Under the pieces are notes generated by a model that did no database searches, was not told the origin of the DNA, and saw only the letters and a program-made list of their open reading frames with translations. Position numbers and translations under genes: made by a program. Below, one piece after another: positions 3,001 through 34,900 of a DNA stretch of 64,000 nt. Every line of letters begins with the position of its first letter. The stretch's first letter is position 1. This stretch comes from a virus: positions 3,387 through 67,386 of IMG/VR virus record IMGVR_UViG_3300036398_000516. One strand, given 5' to 3'.

Positions 3001-4822
3001 ATTGATCTTCGTTAGCAAATCCTAATAAGTAATTGACTTTTAAGTAGTTACTCACTTCATTCACTAAATCTTCTGCACTAATACTTTTCTTTGTAGGATT
3101 TTCTTCTTTAATCATACCCATTACAGCATTGATTACAAGCAATTCTTGTTTCTTAGCTGTATCCATCTTCAATGGTTCTGATAAAGATATAGGATTCTTA
3201 CTATACTTCTTCAATACATCAGGTAACACCTTTAATGTTGGAGTGATGTTTGTATAGTTGTTTGTATGAATAAGAGCTTCTTTTTCTATTGGAGAAAGCT
3301 TCTTAGTTATTTCTACATTAGTTAGTCTAGGACGAAAATCACCGTAACTACGTAATCCACCTTCACTATCTAAAATTTTATATTGTTTCTTGAGAGTTTT
3401 AGATAAGAATCTACTTCTTTGTTTAAATGTCTTATTCAATAATCTATCAAAGAATATTTCATTGTCTTTAACTTCTTGTAAAGATCTTTCTTGTCTTAAT
3501 GTATATTGAGGAACGTTATTGAAGATCCAAACATCTAATTCTTCTCTTGTATCAAATGCAGGAGATGGTGCAACATTTACAGCATCATTAAATCCTGCAT
3601 CAAGATTAGCAACTTCATTCTCATCATCAATATATGTTTCATAAAGTCTTTCTCCAAATACCCATCTATATCTTTGTGCCACACCATCAGGATATCTTAC
3701 TAGGTTATCTGTAAAGCCAGTGAGTATTTCCACTCTACCAAGGTCAGCAATAATACTTGTATCTACAGGAGAGACAGATTGGTCACTCACCACAGAATCA
3801 ATATAAACAGAATTATTCAATGCATTGTATTCTTCCCAGCTCATTAAGTCTGTTAGGTCAGAAGACAAGATCTTCATAGCAGCTACATCATATGGATCTG
3901 CTTCTGTAGATTTAAACATGTCAACAATGCTATTAATCCATTCAATAAACTTCTTTAAGAATGAATAATCCTCAGGGGCAGCGTTTCTTTGTTCAATACG
4001 TTGAATAGCTTCAGCAATTAGTTGACCTATGGCTTCTTCTCTTATAGCAGATAGAGCAGGAAGCTGTGTAACATTTCCATCTTCATCTAATGCTAATTGA
4101 CTAATCACCTTAGGTCCCTCATATAAATCTCCATATAAAGAATCTCTAAGTTCTGATTCTTTTCTAGTAGTGGCAGCAGAAGTTAATAAAGCCTCCTTTA
4201 GTTCAGAATTCTTATCTAACAATCTATACCACCAGTGTGCTGCTTCTTCTGGAAGTTTATTCCAAGCAGCTGGTCTTTTATTTAAGTCATCAAGAATATC
4301 CACTGTACCATTAACAAAGTTTGCTGCAGCCAATGCTCCTTCTACAACAGAACCATCTTCTGCTAAGAACTCAGGAACAAGTCTTTGTTCTATTCCTATG
4401 TTCTCTAAGAACTTACCAACAGCACTTAATGTATTAATATGGAAATCTAAATTGCTTTTATCTAATCCAAATAAGGAAGACTGAGTAGATATTTGTGGAC
4501 CATCGCCCTCTCTTAATTCATTCTTCTCTTGTTCATACAAAGCAGCATCAGACTTAAAGAAGTCAAGGTCTCTCTCAAACTTCTTTTCTGCAACTGATTG
4601 TCTAGCAAATTCTCTATCAACAGCTTCATCTAATCTAGAAATAATAATTCTATATCCCCCTTGTCCTGATGTTTGTTGTACAGATGCAATAGATCCCCAG
4701 TTGCTATTTAATTTAACAGCTGCATTTCTAGCATCCTTTTCTCTAAAACCCCAATAATCATTTTGAGTTAAGGTGTCTATGTTCGCATCAATTGCTTTTC
4801 TAATTTCTATTTTACAAGGCAT
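1..4822 (-). CDS. Giant virion (cargo/ejection-type) protein, partial: 1607+ aa; N-terminus at 4822, C-terminus beyond window start
   Basis: An ATG at 4822 on the minus strand begins one nucleotide after the stop of the 3923-aa ORF. By-eye translation towards position 1 (MPCKIEIRKAIDANIDTLTQNDYWGF...) shows no stop codon. The six-frame track omits it because it runs off the window edge. Confidence 0.6.
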   Translation of the reverse strand, partial: MPCKIEIRKAIDANIDTLTQNDYWGFREKDARNAAVKLNSNWGSIASVQQTSGQGGYRIIISRLDEAVDREFARQSVAEKKFERDLDFFKSDAALYEQEKNELREGDGPQISTQSSLFGLDKSNLDFHINTLSAVGKFLENIGIEQRLVPEFLAEDGSVVEGALAAANFVNGTVDILDDLNKRPAAWNKLPEEAAHWWYRLLDKNSELKEALLTSAATTRKESELRDSLYGDLYEGPKVISQLALDEDGNVTQLPALSAIREEAIGQLIAEAIQRIEQRNAAPEDYSFLKKFIEWINSIVDMFKSTEADPYDVAAMKILSSDLTDLMSWEEYNALNNSVYIDSVVSDQSVSPVDTSIIADLGRVEILTGFTDNLVRYPDGVAQRYRWVFGERLYETYIDDENEVANLDAGFNDAVNVAPSPAFDTREELDVWIFNNVPQYTLRQERSLQEVKDNEIFFDRLLNKTFKQRSRFLSKTLKKQYKILDSEGGLRSYGDFRPRLTNVEITKKLSPIEKEALIHTNNYTNITPTLKVLPDVLKKYSKNPISLSEPLKMDTAKKQELLVINAVMGMIKEENPTKKSISAEDLVNEVSNYLKVNYLLGFANEDQYLSYRIDQTFTEVPDRTTDEDVDMTNLNDETLAQMPMAERQRLIQLTGLTKQNPSVYHNKVSLRFNDKYFADRSTHFKLSPSAWGNLTYFYTGNNTFKDAVLLHEIQNDNIEFLREFKPNELNLDNQLLQFKNDLEETLVENLQQLRNGGLKVVKAKDGFISFSGRSEDPSFEGMVVSTSTRVSPVFNENYLYRFLKDNQVVGDTPSIQEIEILHERLLINLRERTDLYEGNRGAETLININNTLDRLYSGRRQYQDFFRKGGASSILSAEDIKNIEDVIAFAEGRFDNISEDIGYFKSDYRIKEIEEKINNYLNATYKNTYLKFKLDIAAKRGRTGLNPSIKYLLYNSEKKIMEEFNKSITDQKKQKLGALKAESVYNFQKNLLKITRNQFIQVINSINYNEELLKQAVDKQIEIDLLQKQTNSNENLDELLEQQEGFYKQALADADKSAKELSKKYKNPEEIAKETLNIEMNYFTPLVHHLLQKHIKEAGKETPMYFSGHDITLLTQGNKQTALIYAGKEEIPFTPEQVREIKKEAAQNLGLLRSVTNPTTEEVNKALSEFKKEGRFNASRITSEILQLTKGRPIETGALYNAMSQIPGIKLIWQPSIKGIKGGAGGYLVDLSNYNYNTPVLYGLEAKQPAAETSNKLPASPASPASVAIFKDFLKRAGVDIQTLKSIIVDGAKQDANGAALIMQKLVQVIEGKEDVALPEEAMHFAVEIIQQTDPKLFNQLLKEINGYAILDKVFKLYGNDPNYQTKDGKPDVIKLKKEAIGKVLAETIINKAEGRTEIPQNLAKVENWWQSIITSIKNLFAKSGMDQAAIKVMSGEAMGTAADIRAKEGEVYFQKNSQQQVYDKINEVRSKIEKRDDGYYINGKKIPTRVTELIKGWNKDLLDANELTKSEYKKLIDNEKALNGTKGHSDIEYAFGLFVDENGDLRADPLNDDGYISQLDPNNRKFYETLRDNLQIRLNSFPEGTKFMAEVIVYDPKRGVAGTIDF

Positions 4823-4823
4823 A

Positions 4824-7800
4824 TTAACAAGTTTTCTTATATGTGATAGCTTTAGCTAAAATAACTTCTTTTTCAGCAACAGTTAACTTTGGTTCTTTTC
4901 CAAAATTATTCTTAGTTGCGTCTATAATTTTTCCATCATTCAATACAAAATAATCAGTCCCATTGTAGTTAGCAACTTTAATGCTACCATTTTGAATTTG
5001 TTGTCTAGCAGTTATTTGATTTATAACTCCTTGGTCTTTAACAATATTACCATTACCATAGGTTATATCACCGTTAGGTTTTAAAAAATAGTAAGTGCCA
5101 CCTATTAAAAACTGCTTATCTTCTTGAACAGGAATTGCAGGTAAAGGTACATTATTTTCTTCTACAACTTGTAACTTTTTATCAAAATAATCAATAATAC
5201 TTTGATTAGTAAGTTCACCTTTTACATGAACAGTTCCATTGTTAAATACAGACTCTCTGTTATCATCATACATTTCTGTAGCATATTGACCATCTCCCCA
5301 AAGATTGATAGCTTTGTAGTAGTATTTAGAACCTCTTACAAAATCTGTACCATCTTCATATTTAACTTTTTGGAAGCCCATTACATCATTTAAAGATGTG
5401 TCACCTATTGCTTTTCTCTTCTCAAAATCAGCACGTGATACGCTCTCTCCATTAATTATATCAATTCTTTCATTACCGTTTTTAACCACTCTAGGAACTA
5501 AAATGTAATCAGATGCTACATCTTTAAAGTTATCAAATCTATCAAGCACTAACACTTGTTTAACTCCTTCTGTAGATATACCTTCTAGTGTTGGGAACTC
5601 ATCAAACTCAACTTCACTAACAAACTCTCCAAGATCATTTACCCCTTCTCCAAAGAAGCTTGGTGCAATATCAGTGATCTTTTTAAATATAGCTTCATCG
5701 TTCCAGTTGTTTCTTTGGAATGCCCCCACCTTACTGAAGTTATCTAACTTTAAATCAGAAGCTAATGAATTAACAACATCTTTTAATCTCTCAGAATAGT
5801 CTTCAATAGGGACAATGTTCTTAATAGATATAGCTGATTGGTAGGTTCCCTGAAGGATAGCCAAGTCTACTATTCTATTATATAAACCATTTGTAGCTGG
5901 GTTATCTCTAAGCTCTCTCATCATGCCTTGATATAAGTTATTATCATAAGCAGTTTTAAGATTTGCTTTTAGTCTAAGACTCTTAGCACCCCCAACTCTA
6001 TCAGAAGAAACTTGTTCTAATTGTTGTAAAATCTCCATGTCTGGATAATCCTTCTTTGCTTTAGCTACATCAGTAACTACAGCTGTATAAGGATCAACTA
6101 ACAACTCTGTTAGTCTAGAACGTAGATTAGTTCTAGTTAGGAATATATAATCAAGGAACGATGTCTTAACCTTATTACCCACTCTATCAAAGTCATCAGC
6201 AGCCAAGTACTCATCTTCTTTATATGGATCTAACACCTTATTAGTGATTACAGCAAACTGAACTTGGTCAAGTTTTAATATAGGAGATAATGCATTTATA
6301 GCATTCTCAGTGATGTTAGCTTTCTCACCTACAAAGGAATTATTCAACACATCTCCAACAGATGAAATTATATTTGTTTTATCAGCTAAAGTAGTTCTCA
6401 ATCTCTTCTTACTCATAGCTTCTGCACTTCCAAACTTAGTAGTGTCGTAGTTAGTAGCTTGTGTAAACTTAAATAAGAACTGACCCATCTTATGGTATTT
6501 CAAGAATTCAACCAATATTCTTTGTTGTTCAACATTGTCAATAGCTGTACCAGCATAGTAATTTTTAATATTAGGAGCTAAGTTCTTCATATCAATCTTA
6601 TTACTAACTACAGCTTTTCTATCAGCTGGGAACTTCTTACGAATAAAGTCTAAGTTCTTCTTGCTATACACAGAGCTAGAACCAATACTATCTAGATAGT
6701 TCATGTACTCTTTAATGATAGGTTGGTTTAAGAACAATGCGGTTGTCTTTACAGGAGTTCCTATTCTAGTCAAGAACATTGCTGTACTGATGATGTTATT
6801 GCTGCTTAAGATTTTAAGAATGTAAGGATCTTTAGCCACATCCACAAATGATGTAATGAATCCTGATAAGTTATCAGAGATGTATTTGTTTGCTCTATCT
6901 AATACACCAGACAAAGATATTCTATCTTGTCCATTGATTCTCACTGTGTTATGAGGAAGTATCACTCTACCGTCACCTATTATCTTTCTTTCATAATCAG
7001 ATAGCTGAGAGAACTTTAATGGATCAATATACCCTTCTATTTTTTGGAACAATGAATGGTTAGTGATATTAACAGCACCAATACCCACCCACTTCTTAGC
7101 TACAACAAACGCATGTCTTAGCATAGTTAAGAAGTTACCATCAAGGATTCTATTTTCTATTTTGCTTTCATCCACTCCTCTAAGACCATCAAGTTCATCA
7201 GCAATACCTTTTAATCCTGCATCAGAGATAGGAGTGATTAATCTATCATAGTTCTCATCAAGAGTTAATATATCCTCAAGACTCTCATAATATTCATTCT
7301 CAACAGATTGTTTGTATAACTTATCAGATAATACAGTATAATCATCTTCTCCAACAACTACAAAGTCATCTTCTAGATTAAGCATGCTTTCAATATCTTC
7401 TTTTAATATGAAGTTTTTAATAGCATCTTTAGCCTGCTCACCATACCCAAAGAAAGGAACTTGTTTCAATTGACCTTTAGAGTTGATGTATGTATTCTTT
7501 AAATACATATTAAGCTTATCTATATCAAAGTCAGATCCTGCTATCTCTGTAATCTCAGAAGGTAACACAACTGTCTTACCCATAGATTGAGGTAGGAAAC
7601 CTTTTATCTTAAACACTAATGAAGAACTTGCAGCCTGGTTAGGGATACGGAAACCAATACCCTTAAGAATTGATTCATTCTCAGGCTTATTTAAATATTC
7701 CAATAACTCTTCATCAGACTTAAATCCAGCCTTCTTAAACTGCTCCTTAAACCAATAAGGAACTAGTATCTCCATGTAACGATTTTCTTTAGTGTAGGAC

Positions 7801-10800
7801 TTAAGGGTACCGTCTGTAAATACTTTCTTACCATTAATTTCAACCACACCTCTCTTCTCTCCAGACTTCTCCCACATAGTTACAGGAACCTGTACAGCAG
7901 GGAAACCATTCACCTTAGGAGAACCAATTGCTTTGTCCACCATAGAATAAAGAATATCTCTAATCTGTACATAAGCAGTAGATGCTTCAAATGGAATTGG
8001 AAACTCTCCATTTGCATCAGTTCTGATTGTATCTATAGCATTATCATCTAGCTCTCTTCTTAACATTTCATATTCAAGAGATTTAGATACAGCAGTTGGG
8101 TCCACTATATTATATACACCACCAAGATCTTCAACACCTAACTTCTTTAATAACTGATTGTAATTTTCTAAGAATAAGTTATTTAACGCTTTTACATTAC
8201 GAGTGTATGCTTTTTGAATCACTTCAGCTCTTTCAGGATCTGCAGTTCTAGGTTTACCATTTTCAAATAAATCTAAGCTAGCTATCTTAGTAGGCTGAGA
8301 ACCAAGGGTTTGTCCAGTACCTCCATCATAACTATTCTCCACTTGAATACCATAAGTCTTCCAAGCTACAGGAATCATCTTACCAAAAGGTGCTGTGTTT
8401 ACATCTCCTGTTTCAAGATCGTATAAATCAAACAACTCTTCAGCACCCACCTTTCTACCAGATTCAAATATAGCGTATTCAGCTTTCTCCTTCCACATCT
8501 TTATGTAGAAGTCTCCTAAGTTATAATCCTCTAAGTCTTTATAATATAAAGGCATTTGAGAAGTTTTATCTAGCACTAAGTCAATTCTATTTGAACCATA
8601 CTTAGGACCAGACACAATAGGCTTTAACACCTCTCTGATAAACTCAGGCTCAGGAGTGCTAAGAAGCTTATCATCATGAGCTTTTAATTTCGTATTATTT
8701 CCATAGGTCCATTCAACATCTTTTCTCTTATCAAGAGCTCTTCTTGTATAAGCCATGTTCCACTGATAGTTATCTTCAGCAAGACCATTTAAATCCCATT
8801 GACCATTTCTAAGCTTAACACTTCTATACACGTGATCCATTATCCAAGAACCAGCATCTGCTTCATTTATCTTACCTCTAACTGTTACATCTCTAAGAGT
8901 GACAGTGTTCATGTAAGGTTTGAACAAATGGTGTCCTGGATCATTTTCAGTTAATTGCACTCCACCAGCATTGTTATATTTTTGGTTATGGAATGTATTA
9001 AACTCAGGATGATCAAATGTTGTTTTTCTACCAGACAAGAAAGACTTAACACGTTTAGTTTCATCTAATTTACCTTTCTTTGTAGCAAACTGATATGGAT
9101 CACCAAATAAGATTTTATGGAACTCTATATTGTTAATGATGTAGTTTATTCTAGCAAATGTTAGAATATCAGTTACATCATCTTGTGATAGTTTGTTTTT
9201 ATTTAATTGCTCAGCTTTAGCAAACTTACTATCTAAGTCTTCATAAGTTACTGTCTTATTAGGATTATTAGTAAGCTTATAGTTGTCTACTAATATTTTA
9301 TTAGTAGCTGCTACATTACGTTCAATGTATGCTTTTACATCTGCATTAATAGCTTCTGCATTCTCCTTAATGTATGCATCAATTTGATCTTGTGTAGCAC
9401 CATTGATAATCAAGTTGTTAACACCAGCTAGCGTTTTACCCTTAAGGATATCTTTAAAGAACCTAAGCTCTTTTGCCTTTCCTAAGTTCTTAAAGTCATC
9501 AGTGACATTAGCTAACTTCTCTCTATTTTCAAAATCTAATGCTAATGCAATATCATCTTTTAAGTATCCTTGGAAGATTGTATTCACCTTTCCCCAAGCT
9601 AATCCACCAGCAACTTCTTTAAAGCTGATGTTATTACCTAAGTTCATCATCCATTCTGTAGAACTATCTGCAGGGATTAATATATGGTAGTTACCATTAA
9701 GGTTTTGATTAATCTCTTGAGTGAATCTATTACCAAGTGTTAAGCCTGTAGTGCTTTTATCTACACCAGTGTTTTGGTTCTTTGTACCACCAATGTGAGA
9801 AACTACTAAAGTTTTAATCTTCTTACCATCTTTATTGTAGAACAGTCCTCCCTTCTTGAAGAACAAACCGTTTGTAGAGAATACATCATTAAGCTCAGGT
9901 CTATTTGATTTTAATTCTTCAACTGTATCAGCCTCATTAAATTCATTTGCAAGTAATGAAGGAGCATTGTTTTCTGTATATGCTTGTGTATTCTCACCTT
10001 CTACGTTAGGATATGTAGTGTCCTGGATAGGATTTTCCACTCTAACATATAAGTCAGCTAATGTATCTAATGGTCCATCAATTCCTAATGTCTTACCACT
10101 CACTGTAGCCACCTCACCTGTCTTTCCAAAATATGCATGAATAGAACCCACTGCCTTAACAAAATCATCTCTTTGTTCAGGCTTCAATCTTAAATATGTG
10201 TCCATTGTATATGTAACACCAATCCTATTTAAGAAGTCTACCATTTGTTGAGGTGATTCAATATCTACACCTTCTGTAGACACCACCTTATATCTTCCCT
10301 GTCCTTTGTTAAATCTAACTAAAGAATTAGGATCAGTTGACAAGTCTTTAAGATTGTTCATCCAACCTGTCTTAGTTTGCTTACTTACAGTGAATTGATC
10401 AGCAGGAGATGTATACACCTCATCAGCGTTAACGTATTGTATTAATGCATTAGGTCTTTGCTTTGTAAAAGTTTGGTAGAATTGTACAAACAATCTCCAA
10501 TCATGTGGCTCAAACTTACTGAAATCAATAGCAACCATCTCACCACTTTCTCCAGTGGTTCCTTTCAAACGTGTAAACAATCTAACATAGTTAGAGTCAT
10601 ATTTAGCTAAGTCTACTAACTTATCTACCATCTTGCTCACCTTAGTGGTATTAGCTAACTTGTCTATCACTGTAGCAAATGCCCTACTGAAGTTTACAAG
10701 CTTTAAGAAATACTTATCAGTGGTAGCTAAAGCAGGTAGAGATAGTGTAGAACTATCAACTTGGTTAGTAGGAACTGTTTCTAATAGTGTACCTATTAAC

Positions 10801-13800
10801 AATTTGATTTGATATGAAGAACTCTTCTTCCAATCTGTAGTGAATGCTTCAGCAGCATACATTCTATTAGTTACATTCTCTGCATTAATATCTAATATAT
10901 CATCTTTATTAAACTCAATCTTAAACGTACGTAAGAAATCTTTTGTCTTATCTACAAGAGCTAACCAACTCTTTTCTCCAATTATCTTATTCTCTTCTTC
11001 ATATTCAGCTTTGATAGCATCAAATAGTTCAGGAGCAGTTAAGTTAGAAATCTCATACAAAGATTTGTTTGTACCAAACACCTTTGCAAAGAATCTAGCA
11101 GTCATATCTCTTACAACATCATTAGTGTCCTTCTCACTTAATCCTTCAACAGCTCTATATTCTGGAGCTAAGGATTTAGCAGATTCAGGAATAGTGTAAC
11201 TCTTATACTTACCTGTATCAATAGCTTTAAACAATTGTTCTTTTGCTGAAGGCTTGTTTACAAATGATTTAACAAATGCAATGATATCTCTAAAGAACTT
11301 TAATATAGCTTCACCAATATTTCTAGCAGGAAGTTTACCAAGTCTAAAGTCAGCAAAATCATCCATGATTCTTTCCTTAGCCTGTTGATCTGTAGCCTCT
11401 TCATAGAACAACATCTTACCAGATTCTCTATCTTTAAACTTACCAGCCTTAGCTTTGAATTCATCAAGAAGAGATTGTTGTTCTTCAGGAGATAAGAAAA
11501 CATTCCATATACCTTCACCAATCTCATGATACTCTGTACCTCTCTGACCACCTTTGTAGAATTTAGCTACACCATTTTCAAACACACCCCAAGCTTTCTC
11601 ACCATCATATGTAGTGATGATACGATCTAATATCTCAAAAGGAATACCAGGAACATTCTTACGTGCCCACTCTTTAAATAACTGAATCTCAGCATCAGTC
11701 ATTCTTTCAGTCTTATCAGCACCAAGTCTTCTATATTGAGAACCTTTAGGTGCTTTAGATTTACTAAAGTCTACATCTGAAGGTTTATCTTCTTTCACAT
11801 CTACAGACTCTGTAGAAGTGGTAACTGCAGGAGCAGCTTCTGTACCATAAGGAGTGGTTTGTGTAACCGTAGCAGCTGTAGATGTAGGAGCAGCTTGATC
11901 TTTGCTCTTAATCTCATTAGCTATTTGAATCTTAAGATAGTCTTTAACTATACCAAGATCATCTTTAGTAGCATCAAATCTTTCTGCTTGTTTTAAATAC
12001 TCAACAATTTGTAAAACCTTAGCTTCAGTGTTAGCTATATCTGTAACTGTTTGATTATCAGTTATTTTAATAAATAATCCATCCTTAGTTTTCTTAGCTG
12101 TAAATAAGACAGGACCTGTAGAAACATCATAGATGTTTTCTGTAGTGCCATCTAAATTATATCCACCAACAACATCAGGTGATGTTGGAGTGGTTGTAGC
12201 TGTAGCAGGAGGAGTAGGTAATTGTTCAGGAAGTTCCATTCCTTCTAAGACAGCATACTTCTGTTTGAAGTTGTAAGGAACAGCATCTGTAATCTTTGCT
12301 ACGTTTGTAGACAAAGGAGTTTCACTAACAGGTCTAGATGACCCATTAGGAAACTTGTTTCCCAATAAATATGTTTGATAGTTCTCCCACTCACTGATGA
12401 TTAAATTACCATCAGGACCAATGTGTGGTTCTAAGAATTTTTCGTGGAATTTTTTAGTAAGTGTATCTCTATTAAGATTCTGATACACGCTCTTTAATTG
12501 ATCAACTATTTGATCTTCTAATTCAGCTATTTTAGTTAGGTCATACTTTTCTTTACCTAACTCAAGATTCATTGTGTTAGTGTTAATAAAGATTTGGTTG
12601 TTTGAACTAGCTCCTTTGCTCTTCCAATACAATACATTCTGCAAATATGTAGAATATAATCTATTGATTTTAATTGATTTACCAGCAGCTAATTGGCTAT
12701 TAACCTCTTCAGAGATTTTCTTTAGCACTTCAAACACACCCTTTGCTTCCTTAGCTGAGAAGTTTCTACTTCTTACATTCTGTAATGTATCACCATATTG
12801 GATATAAGGATGTCCAATAGACACCTTAACTTGCTTACCCTTATGGAATATAAATCCAGTGTTAGAAACTTGAATCAATCCTTCTTGTGTAGAAATAACA
12901 GATTCAGGAACTAGTGTTTCACCAATATGATTTCTTTCTCCTTTTGTAAGTTCAGGAATACCTTTAGACACTGTGAAATTATAAACCTTATATCCAGGTT
13001 CTTTAAATAACTCAGCTCTTTTAATCTTCCAACCAGCTTGCTTAGCTTCAGCTAAAGCTTTTTGTTCAGCTCTGTATTTAGGAGATTTGTCTTTATATCT
13101 TAAATCTGTAGTGGGCATAGTGTTGTATACCAACTTACTCATGTCCATTGTCTCACCCACCTTAGCAACACGCTTACCATCTTTGTCTACAAAGTAAACA
13201 TTACTACCATCTTGTTCTACGTATACAGCAGCCACTAAGCCAATATCTACATTTGTAGCATCAGGCACTTCATCTTTAGGAACACCATATTGCATCTCAG
13301 TTAATCCTGTTAAACCAAGAGAGTCTTCTTGATTAGGAGTTACTAAAATGGCTCTTATTTTAGATCTGTTAGGAAACTTACCAACGTTGTTTAAGAACTC
13401 AACAGCACGAAGTTGATGAGGTTTAAAAGATGCTATGTCTTCTTCTTTTTCAGAAGTTGTACGCTCAAACAATATATTAGCATCTACCAATCTACCTTCA
13501 TCTTCTGATTTTGTAATTGGTGTATCTACAATAGCAACATCACCAGAGTTAAGTTCAATCTCTGCCTGTTCTTTATTTACATCATCAGCAAACTTCTGTA
13601 ACTTCTCTTGGTCAGTTTGAATCTTCTCATATCCAGACAATTGATCAGGAGCAATGTTCTTAATGTCTCCATTAACATCTTCCACCTTAACTGTACCATC
13701 TTCATTAAGACCAATTACTCTCACCTTAGTAAGATCAGCTAAGTCACTATTAATATCTTCTAATGCAGCTTTTGCAGATTCTTCTGATTTGAATGATGTC

Positions 13801-16595
13801 ACAGTTCCATCAGGAGAAGTAACTTGCCATCTATCATCAGCTATTTTATTTAATGTAGCTAATTTAGATTTACCAATTTCATACTCTCTTCCTTCTTGTA
13901 CAGCTTCTTTCTCACCACCCTTGTTTACAAAATCATAAGCTGTTTCTGCAATTGGTTCTTCCACCACTTCCTCTTCTGCAACCACTTCATCTTCTTCAAC
14001 CTCAGCAGCTTTCTCTTTAGATATTTGATCAGCTTCTTCAAAGTATTTCTCAAATCCTTCTTTGGTAGTTAATTTATCATAAGCTTCAGAGGCTTTTTGC
14101 TTTCTCTCTCCTAGTTTATTAATGTCAACACCATAGTTACGTAAGTCATTAGCACTACCTAAAGGAAGCACATCAGATTTAGTTGCATCTTGACCATTCA
14201 ATTCAAAGTTTAATAACTTCTCAAAGGTCTTATCATCCACCTTCCCCTCTTTCAATAAGAGATTGATCTTCTCAGCGTTTGTACGCAAAGCTTTAATTTG
14301 ATCTCTACCTGCTTTTCTTTCAGCAGCGTTAGTGTACAAATCAATTGTTTCACTTAAGCCTGCAGCTTTTTGTTCGTAGAAATCACGTAACTCTGTTAGT
14401 CCCTCTCTATTAGTAAGTTGTGCAAGCATGCTATTACTGATCAAAGGGTTTACATTGCTTACAGAAGTTTGAATAGATTGTAATCTACCATCTATATTCT
14501 TATTTGTAACAGCATAGTAAGCTAAGTCAGTTTTATAATCTTCAAATGTATTATAATTACTAGCTTCAATTAATGTATTTACATCATCAAAGTTAGGAGC
14601 ATTCTTAAATGGATTCTTGAAAGTTTTGTTAATTAAGTCTGAAGTTTCTTTAATTTGATTTGCTTTATCAATTAAATTGTCTACATACTCACTTACAGTT
14701 TGTTTATTTGTAGCATCAAAATCTAATTGGAACATGCTTTCAAACTGATCTTTAGGAAGATCCTTAAGCATTTTTAATTGCTCAATTGTTACATCATGCA
14801 TTCCACTAGGAATACGTGATTGCACAAAGCTAAAGAATTGTGTATCTTGTAAGTTTTTGTATTTAAATACATCATTAGAAGCGTTTGCTTCTTGCATTTG
14901 TTTAGCAATAAAAGCAGATGTTTGTGTATTATCATACATTTGCTTTATTGTATTGGTAAGCCCTTGTGTATTAAGAACATTAATAGCATTACCTAATCTA
15001 GCATCTACTCCTTGCTTTTTATAATTATCAAACAAGCTCTGTCCTGTACCAACAACCAATCCTGTAAGGGCACCAATCACCATGTTTTCAATACCTTGTT
15101 GAGTACCAAACTGTTGATTTAAACCATACACAGTTGACTTAATAATTTCATCTAATTCATCTCTAGTGTCCTTATTGTCTTTAGACTTATACTGTCTTGT
15201 ATAATAATCATACGTTCCTTTTTCTGTACCATATTGTAAACCTTCTTCAGCTACCCCTTCTGTAAACATTGTAGCTAGCTTTGGCTTAACTACATCCCAA
15301 GCTTTTCCAGCAACTGATTCTACAGCCTTTCTTTCAAATACATCTAAGCTACCTTCTTTTAATCCTATCTTACCAAATTCTTCTAAGCTTTTTTGTAAAC
15401 CACCTGTAACAGGTCCTCCTCCAGCAATTATAGATTTAAATGCATTACCAAAGAACAATCCATTAGATGCAGTGAGTAATGCCATGTTGATACCAAACCT
15501 AGTGTTCATACCATCACGAGAGTAATTTTCTATTTCCTCCATTGCTGCAGCATCTGGCTCTTGACCAAAGTGATCAAACTTGTATTGGTTAACAAGTTCT
15601 TCCTTAATTGCTCTATAACTATCTCTTCCTTCTGTACCTGCCTCATTCATAGAAGCTCCTAGAACAGCCATACCATATCTAAACTTGGTTCCTAAAGAAG
15701 CAGCAGCAGACATTTGAGCAAGCTTTTCTAAAGCAACCATTTGGTTCTTACTCTTTCCTAACTCTTCTCCTAATTGTCTAAGTTTAGTTAATTTTGAAAG
15801 TTGGGTTGCACCAATTGCCTTACCCACCATAGTTTCAGCACTGAATAATTTATTTAAATATAAAGATGCTTTACCAAGTTGAGAAGCTACTAATGGAATT
15901 TCTCCAATAGCTCCTGTCATAGCACCAATAGCAACATCTTGAGCAGCAGCTGATGCAAAAGATCCTGCCATAAATCCTAAGTTAGGCATAAACTTCTCAC
16001 CCCAGAAATAAGAACTTCCTGGTGCAAAAGGAATAATACCAACAAACGGATGTTCTTTAGCATAAGTGCTTTGATATGTAGGGATAAAATTATCCATACT
16101 TTCCATCCAGCCATCTATAGTTCCTTCTACACCATTGGGGTCACCTGACAGTTTAGATGCATCTCCGCTTTTAATAGCAGAAATAAGATTGGGAATATTA
16201 AACATACCCTCAGCAAAAGAACCAACAGTTCTACCAGTAAATTTAACTAAACCTCTTCCAAGGTTACCTAATGCAGTTTGGCTCTGTGCATTAATATCTT
16301 CTAAGTCACCAACCTCTCTTCCGTATATAGGATAGCGTTGGTTTTCAATAAGTTCACTTTGTGGAATATATCCAAATGGTTGACCAAATCCCCCAGGACC
16401 AGGCATGTTAGCAACTTCTGATAATTGTTCAAGCGTCAACCCCTTAGGACTTACAGGAGCAGTTATAGGACCACCAGTAGTAATGTTATCTACATTAAGT
16501 AAATTTGGAGATGCCATTGAAACTATAGGTCCACCTAACGTTGGATCTAAAGGTAGATGTTGATCTTCGTCTAATTGATTATCTAAAATTGCCAT
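4824..16595 (-). CDS. Giant multidomain virion protein (3923 aa) with an RNAP-like DFDID motif; candidate virion-packaged RNA polymerase / cargo protein
   Basis: Single uninterrupted ORF. It contains acidic and Pro/Thr-rich linkers that suggest many domains. Residues 3020-3028 read GSDFDIDKL (nt 7518-7532), resembling the NADFDGD metal-binding loop of two-barrel (DPBB) RNAPs. It sits in the cluster of giant proteins at the end of the structural operon. Confidence 0.7.
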   Translation of the reverse strand: MAILDNQLDEDQHLPLDPTLGGPIVSMASPNLLNVDNITTGGPITAPVSPKGLTLEQLSEVANMPGPGGFGQPFGYIPQSELIENQRYPIYGREVGDLEDINAQSQTALGNLGRGLVKFTGRTVGSFAEGMFNIPNLISAIKSGDASKLSGDPNGVEGTIDGWMESMDNFIPTYQSTYAKEHPFVGIIPFAPGSSYFWGEKFMPNLGFMAGSFASAAAQDVAIGAMTGAIGEIPLVASQLGKASLYLNKLFSAETMVGKAIGATQLSKLTKLRQLGEELGKSKNQMVALEKLAQMSAAASLGTKFRYGMAVLGASMNEAGTEGRDSYRAIKEELVNQYKFDHFGQEPDAAAMEEIENYSRDGMNTRFGINMALLTASNGLFFGNAFKSIIAGGGPVTGGLQKSLEEFGKIGLKEGSLDVFERKAVESVAGKAWDVVKPKLATMFTEGVAEEGLQYGTEKGTYDYYTRQYKSKDNKDTRDELDEIIKSTVYGLNQQFGTQQGIENMVIGALTGLVVGTGQSLFDNYKKQGVDARLGNAINVLNTQGLTNTIKQMYDNTQTSAFIAKQMQEANASNDVFKYKNLQDTQFFSFVQSRIPSGMHDVTIEQLKMLKDLPKDQFESMFQLDFDATNKQTVSEYVDNLIDKANQIKETSDLINKTFKNPFKNAPNFDDVNTLIEASNYNTFEDYKTDLAYYAVTNKNIDGRLQSIQTSVSNVNPLISNSMLAQLTNREGLTELRDFYEQKAAGLSETIDLYTNAAERKAGRDQIKALRTNAEKINLLLKEGKVDDKTFEKLLNFELNGQDATKSDVLPLGSANDLRNYGVDINKLGERKQKASEAYDKLTTKEGFEKYFEEADQISKEKAAEVEEDEVVAEEEVVEEPIAETAYDFVNKGGEKEAVQEGREYEIGKSKLATLNKIADDRWQVTSPDGTVTSFKSEESAKAALEDINSDLADLTKVRVIGLNEDGTVKVEDVNGDIKNIAPDQLSGYEKIQTDQEKLQKFADDVNKEQAEIELNSGDVAIVDTPITKSEDEGRLVDANILFERTTSEKEEDIASFKPHQLRAVEFLNNVGKFPNRSKIRAILVTPNQEDSLGLTGLTEMQYGVPKDEVPDATNVDIGLVAAVYVEQDGSNVYFVDKDGKRVAKVGETMDMSKLVYNTMPTTDLRYKDKSPKYRAEQKALAEAKQAGWKIKRAELFKEPGYKVYNFTVSKGIPELTKGERNHIGETLVPESVISTQEGLIQVSNTGFIFHKGKQVKVSIGHPYIQYGDTLQNVRSRNFSAKEAKGVFEVLKKISEEVNSQLAAGKSIKINRLYSTYLQNVLYWKSKGASSNNQIFINTNTMNLELGKEKYDLTKIAELEDQIVDQLKSVYQNLNRDTLTKKFHEKFLEPHIGPDGNLIISEWENYQTYLLGNKFPNGSSRPVSETPLSTNVAKITDAVPYNFKQKYAVLEGMELPEQLPTPPATATTTPTSPDVVGGYNLDGTTENIYDVSTGPVLFTAKKTKDGLFIKITDNQTVTDIANTEAKVLQIVEYLKQAERFDATKDDLGIVKDYLKIQIANEIKSKDQAAPTSTAATVTQTTPYGTEAAPAVTTSTESVDVKEDKPSDVDFSKSKAPKGSQYRRLGADKTERMTDAEIQLFKEWARKNVPGIPFEILDRIITTYDGEKAWGVFENGVAKFYKGGQRGTEYHEIGEGIWNVFLSPEEQQSLLDEFKAKAGKFKDRESGKMLFYEEATDQQAKERIMDDFADFRLGKLPARNIGEAILKFFRDIIAFVKSFVNKPSAKEQLFKAIDTGKYKSYTIPESAKSLAPEYRAVEGLSEKDTNDVVRDMTARFFAKVFGTNKSLYEISNLTAPELFDAIKAEYEEENKIIGEKSWLALVDKTKDFLRTFKIEFNKDDILDINAENVTNRMYAAEAFTTDWKKSSSYQIKLLIGTLLETVPTNQVDSSTLSLPALATTDKYFLKLVNFSRAFATVIDKLANTTKVSKMVDKLVDLAKYDSNYVRLFTRLKGTTGESGEMVAIDFSKFEPHDWRLFVQFYQTFTKQRPNALIQYVNADEVYTSPADQFTVSKQTKTGWMNNLKDLSTDPNSLVRFNKGQGRYKVVSTEGVDIESPQQMVDFLNRIGVTYTMDTYLRLKPEQRDDFVKAVGSIHAYFGKTGEVATVSGKTLGIDGPLDTLADLYVRVENPIQDTTYPNVEGENTQAYTENNAPSLLANEFNEADTVEELKSNRPELNDVFSTNGLFFKKGGLFYNKDGKKIKTLVVSHIGGTKNQNTGVDKSTTGLTLGNRFTQEINQNLNGNYHILIPADSSTEWMMNLGNNISFKEVAGGLAWGKVNTIFQGYLKDDIALALDFENREKLANVTDDFKNLGKAKELRFFKDILKGKTLAGVNNLIINGATQDQIDAYIKENAEAINADVKAYIERNVAATNKILVDNYKLTNNPNKTVTYEDLDSKFAKAEQLNKNKLSQDDVTDILTFARINYIINNIEFHKILFGDPYQFATKKGKLDETKRVKSFLSGRKTTFDHPEFNTFHNQKYNNAGGVQLTENDPGHHLFKPYMNTVTLRDVTVRGKINEADAGSWIMDHVYRSVKLRNGQWDLNGLAEDNYQWNMAYTRRALDKRKDVEWTYGNNTKLKAHDDKLLSTPEPEFIREVLKPIVSGPKYGSNRIDLVLDKTSQMPLYYKDLEDYNLGDFYIKMWKEKAEYAIFESGRKVGAEELFDLYDLETGDVNTAPFGKMIPVAWKTYGIQVENSYDGGTGQTLGSQPTKIASLDLFENGKPRTADPERAEVIQKAYTRNVKALNNLFLENYNQLLKKLGVEDLGGVYNIVDPTAVSKSLEYEMLRRELDDNAIDTIRTDANGEFPIPFEASTAYVQIRDILYSMVDKAIGSPKVNGFPAVQVPVTMWEKSGEKRGVVEINGKKVFTDGTLKSYTKENRYMEILVPYWFKEQFKKAGFKSDEELLEYLNKPENESILKGIGFRIPNQAASSSLVFKIKGFLPQSMGKTVVLPSEITEIAGSDFDIDKLNMYLKNTYINSKGQLKQVPFFGYGEQAKDAIKNFILKEDIESMLNLEDDFVVVGEDDYTVLSDKLYKQSVENEYYESLEDILTLDENYDRLITPISDAGLKGIADELDGLRGVDESKIENRILDGNFLTMLRHAFVVAKKWVGIGAVNITNHSLFQKIEGYIDPLKFSQLSDYERKIIGDGRVILPHNTVRINGQDRISLSGVLDRANKYISDNLSGFITSFVDVAKDPYILKILSSNNIISTAMFLTRIGTPVKTTALFLNQPIIKEYMNYLDSIGSSSVYSKKNLDFIRKKFPADRKAVVSNKIDMKNLAPNIKNYYAGTAIDNVEQQRILVEFLKYHKMGQFLFKFTQATNYDTTKFGSAEAMSKKRLRTTLADKTNIISSVGDVLNNSFVGEKANITENAINALSPILKLDQVQFAVITNKVLDPYKEDEYLAADDFDRVGNKVKTSFLDYIFLTRTNLRSRLTELLVDPYTAVVTDVAKAKKDYPDMEILQQLEQVSSDRVGGAKSLRLKANLKTAYDNNLYQGMMRELRDNPATNGLYNRIVDLAILQGTYQSAISIKNIVPIEDYSERLKDVVNSLASDLKLDNFSKVGAFQRNNWNDEAIFKKITDIAPSFFGEGVNDLGEFVSEVEFDEFPTLEGISTEGVKQVLVLDRFDNFKDVASDYILVPRVVKNGNERIDIINGESVSRADFEKRKAIGDTSLNDVMGFQKVKYEDGTDFVRGSKYYYKAINLWGDGQYATEMYDDNRESVFNNGTVHVKGELTNQSIIDYFDKKLQVVEENNVPLPAIPVQEDKQFLIGGTYYFLKPNGDITYGNGNIVKDQGVINQITARQQIQNGSIKVANYNGTDYFVLNDGKIIDATKNNFGKEPKLTVAEKEVILAKAITYKKTC

Positions 16596-16596
16596 A

Positions 16597-19233
16597 TTAT
16601 TTCCAAGTTTTCATTGCTTGTTGAACACCAACATTACTTATTCCATTCATCATGTTTACTATTCCACCTGATTGAACATATCCTGTATGCATTCTTTTTC
16701 CTTTCCATCCAGTTCCTCCAGGAGGATGAACATACATAATTAAACTATAACCATCAGATTCTGTTCCATTATTATCTGGATTTCCTTCTATGTCAAATCT
16801 AACTAATGGAGCAAGAGGATCGTTTGCTAATAAAGGAACATCATATCCTGTTATTCCTGCATTTACAGCATTCGTTGCATCCACTTCACTATCTCTTTGA
16901 TTTGCTTTATTTGTAGTGTGATTCTCAGAATTTGCTATATTGTCTATGTATCTGTTTAGTATACTAGTCTTCTTAACTTTAGGAAAGAAATCTTGCTCTA
17001 ATGTTTTCATAGCAACAACTTGGCTTTGTGATCCATCAGGGCTAATTGCTAACATTTGAGTACTACCATCTCTAGATTTTTGTATTTCAAATCTTGTATT
17101 ACCACCATTCTCTCCATTCATCCATCCTAAAACTGTAGATGCAGATTTACCACCAGTGTTTAATTCTTCAGAAAGTTTACCAGTTAGGAACTTATCTATT
17201 GCAGCTTTCTCATTTTTATCACTCATGTTAAGTGCACTTCTTTGAATAAGTGACCTTGGGTTATGTTCAGCTAAGTAATCACTTTCAATTTTGCGTGACT
17301 CGTTATTTATAGTGTTTATTGTAGATGTTGCATTATCTAAAACCTTCTTAATTTCTTTTTGTTTTGGAGTGGCATTAAAACTAAAATTACCATTATAATA
17401 ATCATTATATAATTGTAAATACTTTCCTCCAGCATAAGTTTTAAAATATTTTGATGCAGCTTCAGTATCAAATCTAGTTATTCCTCTAGGGCCAATCCTA
17501 TTAAATTGTTGCAATTGTTTAGACATTTCTCCTATAGCCTCACCTGTATACCCAGCTGCTCCTTTTATCTTATCTTTAACTTCAGTGTTTACATATTCTT
17601 TTACTTTTCTTTGAGCAGCAGTTACTAAGTTAGCCTGAGCAACAAACGCATTCTCAGCCACCTCATGTTGTTTTAAAAAGTCTAATTGATCAGGACTATA
17701 ATTTGCTTTAGGATTTGTAGCATAATCTTTTAATAGCTTATTAAATCCAGCTCTCTTTTGATCATCAGTCATACCAGAAAATAATCTACTTGCAAACTTA
17801 TTTTCTAAAGCTGTAATTGCATTTGCTTTTTCAGTTAACACCACTGTTTCACTTGCTACTGTTGGAGCAGAACCACCTGTAGGAAGTGTACCTGGTAATA
17901 CAACATCACCAGGAGGTAAAGGATTATCTCTTGCGTCTTTTTCTTTATCAAAGGTAAGTCTATCTCTAGTAGTTTGAATAGATGCCCAACCTCTAGCACT
18001 TTCATCAGCAAACTTATTTTGATCAAACAAAAACTTTTGTTTATCCATATATGATTTGAAATATGGATTATCATCTAACTCTTGCTTATAGCTTCTAGTA
18101 GACATATCTGTTGCCATATTCATCAAATGCTTTTGAGTATATATGTCAGTTTTATACTTTTCTAAATTCTCAGGCTTTTGAAGTGCTTGTAATGTAGCGT
18201 TTAATTCTTTATCTATCACTCCATCTTTCTCATTAGTCTGAAGTTGATTTAACTTAGCTTTTAATGTAGCTTTTTGTAAATCAGTTAAATCTGGATTTTT
18301 TAAAGCTACAGCTGTATTAACTATTTCTTGAGATTGAAATTGTTTTTTATTATTAAAAACATCAACTATATCTTTTGTAAATGCCTCAGCTGTAATACCT
18401 CTGTATTTAGCTTTAGCGTCAATTCTTAATTGTTGTGCAGCTCTACTATCTATACTGTCTAAGAAGTTATTAAATAGCTTACTAGCAGAGGTACCTTTTA
18501 TAGATAACTTAAGTAAAGCATCATCAACTTTTTCTTTACCTTTAGAAGGATCTAAAGAATAAACTTCTCTAGTTACAGGCTGTTTAGTTTTAGGATTTAT
18601 TACTGTCTTACCCTTTGCATCTTTTACCACTTCATTGTAGAAATACTTTGTCCTTCCATCTGCATCTCTTTGCCAAGGATTATCTACAATATATTCATCT
18701 GGACGACTTAATATCTTATCAGCCCTTTCCATAAGACTTTTATCTACATCATAGAACTCATTGTATTGACCGTTAAATGGAGAATTAATATTATCATCAT
18801 TTAACCAAGCTGTTTTTTGATCAATCCAATCACGGTCATTGTTAGGAGAAGTCTTACCTGCTTTAGCAGCAGCTTCCCTATCAGTATCTCCTTTTTTAAT
18901 CTTTTGTGCAGAATAAATAGCAGTTTGAACTGTTGGATCTTTAATAATGCTTGTAGCCATACCACCAACAGAGTTAACTAGTTGTTGGTTTGAGAAGTCT
19001 CCAGCAGCCACAGTTTTTAACTTACCACCTAATTCATCAAGTTTAGATTGAAGGTATGCTTTGTGCTTATCTGTTACATCCAACCCAGCTATGTTATCCA
19101 TATAGGACTGGATCTTTTGTACACCAGCATCATATTGTTGCTGTTTGTACATACCTACCTTCACCATTGCCTCTGAAGGCAATTGTGCTACGTAGGGATT
19201 AAATTTTGATATCTGGTCTGTAAATGAAGCCAT
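16597..19233 (-). CDS. Large virion structural/cargo protein (878 aa)
   Basis: Long ORF. Its stop lies 2 nt upstream of the giant ORF start, so they are co-oriented in the late operon. No recognisable catalytic motif. Confidence 0.6.
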   Translation of the reverse strand: MASFTDQISKFNPYVAQLPSEAMVKVGMYKQQQYDAGVQKIQSYMDNIAGLDVTDKHKAYLQSKLDELGGKLKTVAAGDFSNQQLVNSVGGMATSIIKDPTVQTAIYSAQKIKKGDTDREAAAKAGKTSPNNDRDWIDQKTAWLNDDNINSPFNGQYNEFYDVDKSLMERADKILSRPDEYIVDNPWQRDADGRTKYFYNEVVKDAKGKTVINPKTKQPVTREVYSLDPSKGKEKVDDALLKLSIKGTSASKLFNNFLDSIDSRAAQQLRIDAKAKYRGITAEAFTKDIVDVFNNKKQFQSQEIVNTAVALKNPDLTDLQKATLKAKLNQLQTNEKDGVIDKELNATLQALQKPENLEKYKTDIYTQKHLMNMATDMSTRSYKQELDDNPYFKSYMDKQKFLFDQNKFADESARGWASIQTTRDRLTFDKEKDARDNPLPPGDVVLPGTLPTGGSAPTVASETVVLTEKANAITALENKFASRLFSGMTDDQKRAGFNKLLKDYATNPKANYSPDQLDFLKQHEVAENAFVAQANLVTAAQRKVKEYVNTEVKDKIKGAAGYTGEAIGEMSKQLQQFNRIGPRGITRFDTEAASKYFKTYAGGKYLQLYNDYYNGNFSFNATPKQKEIKKVLDNATSTINTINNESRKIESDYLAEHNPRSLIQRSALNMSDKNEKAAIDKFLTGKLSEELNTGGKSASTVLGWMNGENGGNTRFEIQKSRDGSTQMLAISPDGSQSQVVAMKTLEQDFFPKVKKTSILNRYIDNIANSENHTTNKANQRDSEVDATNAVNAGITGYDVPLLANDPLAPLVRFDIEGNPDNNGTESDGYSLIMYVHPPGGTGWKGKRMHTGYVQSGGIVNMMNGISNVGVQQAMKTWK

Positions 19234-19319
19234 AGTGTATTAATTAGCAAATGTAAATTAAAATATCAGAAATACCAAGAACAATAACAGATTTTGTTAA
19301 TTTGGTATAACTGGATTGG

Positions 19320-34166: not shown

Positions 34167-34900
34167 TACTGGGTTGGTTGTGCATTAGGAGCTTGCCCAT
34201 CAACACCGTTATCTGCCATATCTGTTTTAATACTAAAATATGTAGATAATAATTTTTGAGACGTAAGCTCTAATACTTGTTTCTCAAGATATCCTGGACA
34301 ACCATATTCTTTATCCAAAGGATTTTTACAGTATTCTTCATCAGTAACCTCAGGACCAGTACCACAACCACATTCTGGATACGCAATATCATTAGGAATA
34401 TCTTCTTCAAAGAATGCTGATATCCTAACTGATTTTAAATTTGGATTACTCAAATATAAGTAACCTTCATTTGCTATCCAATAGTATGTTTGTTTTTTAA
34501 TAATAGGAAGTCCCAGTAAGTTTAAATATCTATTGATTGTAATCTCTTTAAACTTTGTACCCATTCCTCCCATAGCGTTTATAGAATAAACACCTTGTAT
34601 CAAATATTGATAATTTCCTTCTGTAATTCTAGGAAGTTTATATTTACTTCTAGAAACAGTACATGGATCTACGTAATTACAACAGTCAGAAATAGGAACT
34701 TCTACCATTTCCAAACATTGGATGGTATTAAAGACAGTATCAGTAGCCCAAAGCTTTCTGAGATTTGTCTCACGTTTAACTAATAACTGTGTGTTGTTTC
34801 TAATCTCTGATGCAATAACCCTATCTGTGATAACGTTATCTGTGGATATAAGCTTATGCATTCCACGCACATCTGAAACTAACTTACGTAATGTTGCCAT
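34166..34900 (-). CDS. Hypothetical structural protein (244 aa), Cys-containing
   Basis: ORF that overlaps the neighbouring gene by 1 nt at each end (coupled translation). Confidence 0.45.
   Translation of the reverse strand: MATLRKLVSDVRGMHKLISTDNVITDRVIASEIRNNTQLLVKRETNLRKLWATDTVFNTIQCLEMVEVPISDCCNYVDPCTVSRSKYKLPRITEGNYQYLIQGVYSINAMGGMGTKFKEITINRYLNLLGLPIIKKQTYYWIANEGYLYLSNPNLKSVRISAFFEEDIPNDIAYPECGCGTGPEVTDEEYCKNPLDKEYGCPGYLEKQVLELTSQKLLSTYFSIKTDMADNGVDGQAPNAQPTQ

Follow-up and report, generated by a model that had tools for sequence, protein, structure and literature searches.

A putative two-barrel virion RNA polymerase fused to a gp47-like module in a giant protein of an uncultured crAss-related phage

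Results

Homology of the C-terminal part to crAss-like virion RNA polymerases

A 64,000-nucleotide stretch of viral DNA (IMG/VR record IMGVR_UViG_3300036398_000516, positions 3,387 to 67,386; hereafter the window) contains an open reading frame (ORF) of 3,923 amino acids (aa), which very probably encodes a single-chain two-barrel DNA-dependent RNA polymerase (RNAP) of the crAss-like virion RNAP (vRNAP) family, comprising aa ~1800-3923, fused to a homolog of gp47 of Bacteroides phage crAss001 (aa 1-~1800). A preliminary description of this DNA had proposed a virion protein carrying a DFDID motif which resembles the catalytic loop of two-barrel RNAPs. This proposal is supported by sequence homology, by a complete catalytic signature, by a predicted fold with two barrels and by the location of the gene within a crAss-type cargo block.

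The long ORF was found where it had been described. The same 3,923-aa product was called on at least six contigs, and the 11,772-nucleotide (nt) gene recurs with 0-1 mismatches across four assemblies (Logan, JGI and ENA samples); therefore, the frame is not an assembly artefact. In the translated protein, DxDxD occurs a single time, as DFDID at aa 3022-3026 (context EIAGSDFDIDKLNMY). These five residues are encoded by nt 7518-7532 as had been indicated, but the nine residues aa 3020-3028 assigned to the same coordinates span nt 7512-7538. Aspartate accounts for 7.1% of the protein. When the sequence was shuffled 2,000 times, DxDxD was expected by chance ~1.4 times per protein and at least one copy was present in 74% of the shuffles, DFDxD in 5.8%. 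Hence, DFDID alone is weak evidence; the weight of the motif comes from homology, invariance and fold.

The C-terminal part, aa ~1800-3923, is a homolog of the crAss-like vRNAPs gp66 of Cellulophaga phage phi14:2 (PDB 6VR4) and gp50 of crAss001. Upon phmmer comparison of the whole protein with all PDB chains, 6VR4 was the sole match (E 3.9e-14). BLASTP aligned the polymerase core with gp66 (Table 1) and aa 2575-3458 with gp50 (E 3e-28). A tblastn search with aa 2401-3923 against 50,697 phage records matched 103 records, all of them crAss-like phages with at most 27% identity, and many of these are annotated as 'putative RNA polymerase'. Protein gp66 was found in the virion; it is Mg-dependent and rifampicin-resistant, requires each aspartate of its DFDID motif and transcribes early genes (Drobysheva et al. 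2020/2021). The sequence GSDFDIDK is identical in gp66 and the 3,923-aa protein. The resemblance to the Mg-binding loop of RNAPs was thus correctly recognized in the preliminary description, but the isoleucine at the fourth position, regarded there as a deviation, is the family norm, because the catalytic motif of gp66 itself reads DFDID.

Conservation was analyzed in an alignment of 50 sequences consisting of 48 relatives, gp66 and gp50, reaching down to ~20% identity. Twenty-eight residues are invariant in all 50 sequences, including the three DFDID aspartates, whose conservation in homologs had been named as decisive. Invariant residues located N-terminally of the barrels are K2514, R2515 and D2580, followed by K2658, K2677 and K2715 in the first barrel and by Q2751, Q2767, K2770, G2897, Q2902, R2983 and P2985. 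The catalytic loop contributes G3020, S3021, D3022, F3023, D3024, D3026 and K3027. Behind this loop, N3100, then G3171 and A3174 of the bridge helix, D3252 of the trigger loop and, further C-terminally, P3292, F3364, D3384 and T3385 are invariant. Furthermore, the polymerase core was compared with 1.84 billion representative proteins in an exhaustive search, which returned 2,179 clusters with E values of 1e-3 or lower, 539 of them with 1e-30 or lower. Among the 141 new best representatives obtained, to which all counts of layout and length given below refer, the motif is DFDID, DFDVD or DFDFD in 140.

The C-terminal region is conserved in relatives to about aa 3820, and the last ~100 aa are common to only some of them. 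Beyond the equivalent of aa ~3820, vRNAPs of relatives (P0011, P0015, P0017, P0020, P0034, P0045, P0051, P0073, P0080 and P0048) carry varied enzyme domains, namely AlkB dioxygenase (PF13532), YbiA/NADAR (PF08719), PIF1/UvrD-like helicase or DUF7831 domains. This observation suggests that variable enzymes are injected with the polymerase as their carrier.

Predicted fold of the polymerase module

An AlphaFold2 model of aa 2400-3520 was built with the 50-sequence alignment and was confident, with a mean predicted local distance difference test (pLDDT) score of 86.7 and a predicted template modeling (pTM) score of 0.83. It shows two strand-rich regions, one at aa ~2657-2752 with the invariant lysines and one at aa ~2897-3037 with the DFDID loop, so that two double-psi beta-barrels (DPBBs) and a connector of ~140 residues are predicted within one chain. 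Comparison of the model with the PDB by Foldseek identified 6VR4 (E 2.7e-30, TM score 0.70) and also QDE-1 of Neurospora (E 1e-4). Both the DPBB fold around the motif and the second barrel, on which the preliminary description had made its proposal depend, are therefore predicted. A second model covering aa 1590-2420 was moderately confident (pLDDT 68, pTM 0.46), and the best structural match for aa 1806-2445 was again 6VR4.

Among the fold matches there was no T7-like structure and hence no indication of an N4-like right-hand polymerase. The features of a multisubunit beta-prime subunit, i.e. NADFDGD with glycine at position 4 and barrels on separate subunits, were not found either. The crAss-like vRNAP family is structurally QDE-1-like; however, QDE-1 and the eukaryotic RNA-dependent RNA polymerases of RNA interference share only ~9-10% identity with the protein described here, without detectable sequence homology, and QDE-1 has a different biological role and the canonical glycine in its motif. 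Among the closest known systems is gp66 of phi14:2, the best structural match for both modeled regions. It likewise is a single-chain two-barrel polymerase with the same GSDFDIDK loop, and it is colinear over both barrels, the connector, the bridge helix and the trigger loop. In contrast, gp66 is a separate protein of 2,180 aa, whereas here the polymerase forms the C-terminal ~2,100 aa of a fusion; identity is ~20-24% and the C-terminal tail differs.

The gp47-like module and the junction domain

The N-terminal part, aa 1-~1800, is homologous to crAss001 gp47, which is also a conserved internal virion protein, and is fused in frame to the polymerase. BLASTP aligned aa 94-712 with gp47 aa 80-721 (E 3e-14) and aa 1575-1724 with gp47 aa 2053-2191. 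A profile hidden Markov model (HMM) of the N-terminal module matched gp47 (E 3e-51) in three colinear stretches over aa ~96-1756 and, in the unclassified Leptolyngbya phage Lbo-JY46, a 1,552-aa protein encoded on its own (E 5.6e-83). A profile search with the module found nothing among PDB sequences, and no Pfam match was obtained. Fused additional domains had been suspected from acidic and PT linkers; a gp47-like module precedes the polymerase in the same chain. The module is Gly/Ala-rich over aa ~100-560; the acidic stretch is located at aa 861-885, P/T/S/A-rich stretches were also detected (Table 1), and hydrophobic windows typical of transmembrane helices do not occur in the module.

In tblastn searches, homologs of the N-terminal module were found in Lbo-JY46 and as a 'structural protein' in the Cellulophaga phages phi17:2 and phi4:1, with no polymerase detected in the same block. 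Because the module occurs in such phages, it is a virion protein in its own right. Lbo-JY46 (L009, PP438436.1) is a cyanophage outside the Crassvirales classification; between positions 15761 and 28667 it carries homologs of the muzzle protein, of the 878-aa protein encoded in the window and of the N-terminal module in the same order. Neither BLAST nor HMM searches revealed a polymerase in its cargo block, and the following 2,748-aa protein does not contain DFDxD.

The gp47-like module is joined to the polymerase by two P/T/S/A-rich linkers and a well conserved junction domain. In its motif GTxYHExx[E/H] the glycine, tyrosine, histidine and glutamate are invariant. The protein studied here reads HEIGE (aa 1690-1694, nt 11514-11528), as compared to HEAFH in crAss001 gp47. 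HExxH, the zincin signature, is present in gp47 and in ~18 of the 141 relatives, HExxE being the usual form in the clade. HEIGE does not correspond to the zinc-binding HExxH helix of zincins, and no credible match of the junction domain was found in Pfam or among PDB sequences. A zincin-like domain was placed in gp65 of phi14:2 (Drobysheva et al. 2020/2021), which reads HEIMH at aa 245; comparison of the junction domain with the gp65 N-terminus by hhalign found nothing. For the junction domain, a zincin-like origin is no more than a lead.

Fused and split relatives

The N-terminal module and the polymerase reside in one protein in 106 of the 141 relatives, a layout shared with the fused giant crAss RNAP genes, in which the polymerase and neighboring cargo proteins form one ORF, here of 3,500-5,650 aa. 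At least 3,500 aa are reached by 127 of the proteins, at least 3,923 aa by 105 and at least 5,000 aa by eight; they range up to 5,650 aa, with a median of 4,137 aa. The fused layout is the rule in this clade, and the protein is slightly shorter than the median. The preliminary description had regarded it as far larger than described crAss-like vRNAPs. This is not the case; besides the lengths given here, a review reports crAss RNAP genes of 'up to ~6000 aa' (PMC10136315). A word-indexed homolog search had initially indicated that relatives are mostly unfused, but proteins above 2,660 aa were absent from its list, among them the query itself. The search over-represents short and partial forms and is misleading for the lengths of giant proteins, and its result was overturned by the exhaustive search.

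Several close relatives are divided at distinct positions, so that two or three genes cover the parts. In L010, a 1,807-aa gene corresponding to aa 1-1872 of the giant protein is separated by a 12-nt gap from a 2,216-aa gene corresponding to aa 1805-3819, which resembles the division of the two parts in crAss001. In L007, the gene boundary lies at the equivalent of aa ~1584-1632, directly after the second P/T-rich linker, and possibly also in P0001, P0022 and P0058. In L008 (4876-17413), the N-terminal module is broken at the equivalent of aa ~567 and the remainder is one open frame of 3,641 codons. The public gene call of L008 starts at codon ~1170 of this frame, which may be due to a wrongly called start, to a frameshift or to a true alternative division.

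Gene neighborhood and origin of the DNA

Nearly all genes between 4.8 and 54.3 kb of the window are located on the minus strand. They are arranged in the order large terminase (TerL), portal, major capsid protein, tail fibers and muzzle, followed by ORFs of 1,029, 1,232, 878, 3,923 and 2,781 aa. TerL, portal and major head protein were recognized by PHROG matches, and a 1,630-aa protein matches the Pfam Crassvirus muzzle family crAss_MUZ (E 6e-38). Collagen-like tail fibers, virion proteins and an exonuclease precede the muzzle gene in the structural block. Genes are tightly packed: the ATG of the 3,923-aa ORF lies 1 nt past the preceding stop codon, and the next gene starts 1 nt past its own. 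The gene order behind the muzzle gene bears out the described location in a run of giant proteins at the distal end of the structural operon, and the parallel drawn to phi14:2 holds as well, with gp66 likewise flanked by two giant cargo genes where the structural operon ends.

In crAss001, the 'RNA polymerase-associated' cargo proteins gp47, gp49 and gp50 were found by mass spectrometry in virions and were assigned to the capsid cargo zone (Bayfield et al. 2023). Proteins gp47 and gp50 match the two halves of the giant protein, and the downstream 2,781-aa ORF, in which HExxH is absent, weakly matches gp49 (E 7e-10). Since this gp49-like gene is cut by the window edge, the window contains just part of the three-protein RNAP-associated set. 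Unlike the arrangement described here, gp47 and gp50 of crAss001 are separate proteins encoded on opposite strands.

The best match of TerL was Lbo-JY46 (40% identity), followed by phi17:2 and phi4:1 of the epsilon crAss-like group (33%). Its matches among known phages are largely crAss-like and also comprise crAssE-Sib (29.5%), cr118_1 and cr50_1; 29 Flavobacterium phage records, the contents of which were not inspected, are further included in the list. Megablast revealed no nucleotide-level match in the 50,697 phage records. The Crassvirales hallmark genes encoding TerL, portal, major capsid protein, muzzle protein and the giant RNAP block are all present in the window. Judged by these genes, the DNA appears to originate from an uncultured, deep-branching crAss-related phage.

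Additionally, three other loci in the window were noticed. A gene of the DNA-repair exonuclease / metallophosphatase type (34900-36141, minus strand; PHROG 704, E 1.5e-42) is located between tail and virion-protein genes. The 1,029-aa ORF (23039-26128, minus strand) matches Pfam ART-PolyVal, the ADP-ribosyltransferase of polyvalent proteins, at aa 842-993 (52.8 bits, cut-off 31.2) and also carries HExxH (AFAHEMFHPMEK) at aa 192; this member of the cargo-gene run probably acts as an injected effector. A full-length transfer-messenger RNA (tmRNA) gene is located at 61809-62232 (plus strand) among small plus-strand, presumably early, phage ORFs. It was called by ARAGORN with a tag ending in ...EYALAA and scored 86.8 bits with Rfam RF00023 (gathering score 47; model positions 1-374); nothing similar was detected by blastn in the 50,697 phage records. 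The gene may be a phage-encoded tmRNA or mark a host junction, though GC (guanine plus cytosine) content and gene style remain phage-like.

Table 1. Features of the 3,923-aa ORF and adjacent genes; positions refer to the window, residues to the 3,923-aa protein
Feature	Position (nt)	Strand	Residues (aa)	Remarks
Complete ORF	4824..16595	minus	3,923 + stop	ATG start; gp47-like cargo module fused to putative gp66/gp50-like virion RNA polymerase
N-terminal module	11844..16595	minus	1-1584	Homolog of crAss001 gp47 and of standalone 1,552-aa Lbo-JY46 protein
Two P/T/S/A-rich linkers flanking a small segment	11796..12216	minus	1460-1473 and ~1564-1600	
Junction domain	11181..11738	minus	~1620-1805	Motif GTxYHExx[E/H]; colinear with C-terminal region of crAss001 gp47
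N-terminal part of polymerase module	9261..11180	minus	1806-2445	Possible winged-helix domain(s)
Polymerase core	6429..9260	minus	2446-3389	gp66 aa 829-1751; BLASTP E 7e-24
First beta-barrel, beta-subunit-like DPBB	8340..8627	minus	~2657-2752	K2658, K2677, K2715, Q2751; boundaries inferred from strand pattern of the model
Connector between barrels	7896..8360	minus	2746-2900	gp66 aa 1095-1238; alignment mapping
Second beta-barrel, beta-prime-like DPBB	7485..7907	minus	~2897-3037	R2983, P2985, catalytic loop; boundaries inferred from strand pattern of the model
Catalytic Mg-binding motif DFDID	7518..7532	minus	3022-3026	gp66 D1361/D1363/D1365; alignment and gp66 mutagenesis
Bridge-helix equivalent	7050..7142	minus	3152-3182	gp66 aa 1529-1559; invariant G3171, A3174; helical in the model
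Trigger-loop equivalent	6768..6884	minus	3238-3276	gp66 aa 1598-1636; invariant D3252; helical in the model
C-terminal region	4827..6428	minus	3390-3923	Conserved in relatives to about aa 3820
Upstream run of large virion/cargo genes	16597..32712	minus		Muzzle (27820-32712), then 268, 288, 1,029, 1,232 and 878 aa
Next gene, cut by window end	1..4822	minus		2,781 aa in full (L003-L006; L003 21774-30119)

Discussion

Some observations weigh against the assignment of the giant protein as a gp47-vRNAP fusion. Its fold is a prediction, its identity to characterized polymerases is just ~20-25%, and not a single Pfam or PHROGs family was found for it. A counterpart of the cleft-blocking domain of gp66 (gp66 aa 196-233) was not identified in the protein. 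Furthermore, equivalence of the N-terminal module to gp67 of phi14:2, prompted by gene order and the summed length of 1,797 + 2,180 aa, is tentative: in addition to gene order it is supported by one weak BLAST hit (E 1.7e-5, 12-sequence database), and the HMM of the module did not recover gp67.

One could argue that DFDID arose fortuitously in a giant structural or ejection protein without polymerase activity, given that ~1.4 DxDxD are expected at this size and composition and that the family databases are silent. However, the residues around the motif (GSDFDIDK) are the same in gp66, the homologous region covers ~940 residues, DFDID, DFDVD or DFDFD is kept across more than 140 divergent relatives, and a two-barrel RNAP fold is predicted; a chance motif can hardly be reconciled with these findings. 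It is also very improbable that the polymerase module, although homologous to vRNAPs, is a catalytically dead relic serving as cargo or ejection scaffold while the host polymerase transcribes the early genes. Such a relic would fit the crystal structure of gp66, which is self-inhibited with a non-canonical loop conformation, and Lbo-JY46, a phage of a related lineage in which no RNAP was detected in the same gene block. Yet all 28 family-invariant residues are retained, including the three aspartates, the lysines of the barrel and the residues of bridge helix and trigger loop, and such conservation at 20-70% identity over hundreds of clusters implies selection on catalysis.

A further proposal refines the assignment as a fused vRNAP. 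The chain may be a polyprotein that is cut near aa ~1460-1870 into a gp47-like protein and a polymerase of ~2,100-2,300 aa, with the conserved HExx[E/H] junction domain itself or a different protease of the phage as the possible cutting enzyme. Relatives have gene boundaries at the equivalents of aa ~567, ~1584-1632 and ~1805-1870, and because boundaries are placed between them the parts can work as separate proteins. The P/T/S/A-rich linkers and the junction domain with its invariant YHE, which reads HExxH in crAss001 gp47 and in some relatives, are also consistent with processing. Drobysheva et al. suggested that fused polyproteins of this type are cleaved and that the three proteins include a zincin-like protease; where they cite Yutin et al. 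(2018), the polymerase is said to be fused with its neighbors into 'a single huge polyprotein, which is likely cleaved'. We consider cleavage a plausible refinement, yet one that is somewhat less probable than an intact chain.

The fused vRNAP would act as its characterized homologs do. It would be synthesized late, stored in the cargo zone of the capsid and, upon infection, passed through the tail in a partly unfolded state, ahead of or together with the DNA, to refold in the host cell. The three DFDID aspartates of the beta-prime-like barrel and the lysines of the beta-like barrel would then transcribe, in a Mg-dependent and rifampicin-resistant manner, the early genes, which probably are the small ORFs that lie on the plus strand of the window from ~56 kb. 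Through the fusion, every polymerase would be delivered together with one gp47-like module, at a fixed ratio of 1:1. An analogy may be drawn to the vRNAP of coliphage N4 (Schitoviridae), described as a giant protein of ~3,500 aa which is packaged in the capsid and ejected as an early-gene polymerase inside a longer ejection/encapsidation chain. The likeness is one of analogy, not homology: N4 has a polymerase domain of the T7-like single-subunit right-hand type, which differs from a two-barrel enzyme.

A more speculative and rather unlikely idea is that gp47-like module, HExx[E/H] junction domain and polymerase form one uncleaved ejection-and-transcription machine of ~440 kDa, an independently evolved two-barrel analog of the N4 vRNAP, or else that the junction domain is a non-canonical HExxE self-processing metalloprotease which frees the polymerase after ejection. 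Either version, if true, would give a handle on the activation of crAss-like vRNAPs, a question left open by the work on gp66.

An injected two-barrel RNAP transcribing early genes is already established for phi14:2, and the enzyme as well as fusions of this kind are known and common in metagenomes. The protein described here is a divergent addition to them, from a large crAss-related clade of uncultured and probably aquatic phages; it adds breadth and not a new principle. It also illustrates that a divergent vRNAP with ~20-25% identity to known enzymes and neither a Pfam nor a PHROG hit can be spotted by a reader of the letters from a five-residue motif and the gene context. The natural fused and split variants, with breakpoints at three positions, provide ready domain boundaries for expression constructs, and they could help to ask whether the gp47-like protein is a partner of the polymerase, e.g. 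in ejection, anchoring or activation.

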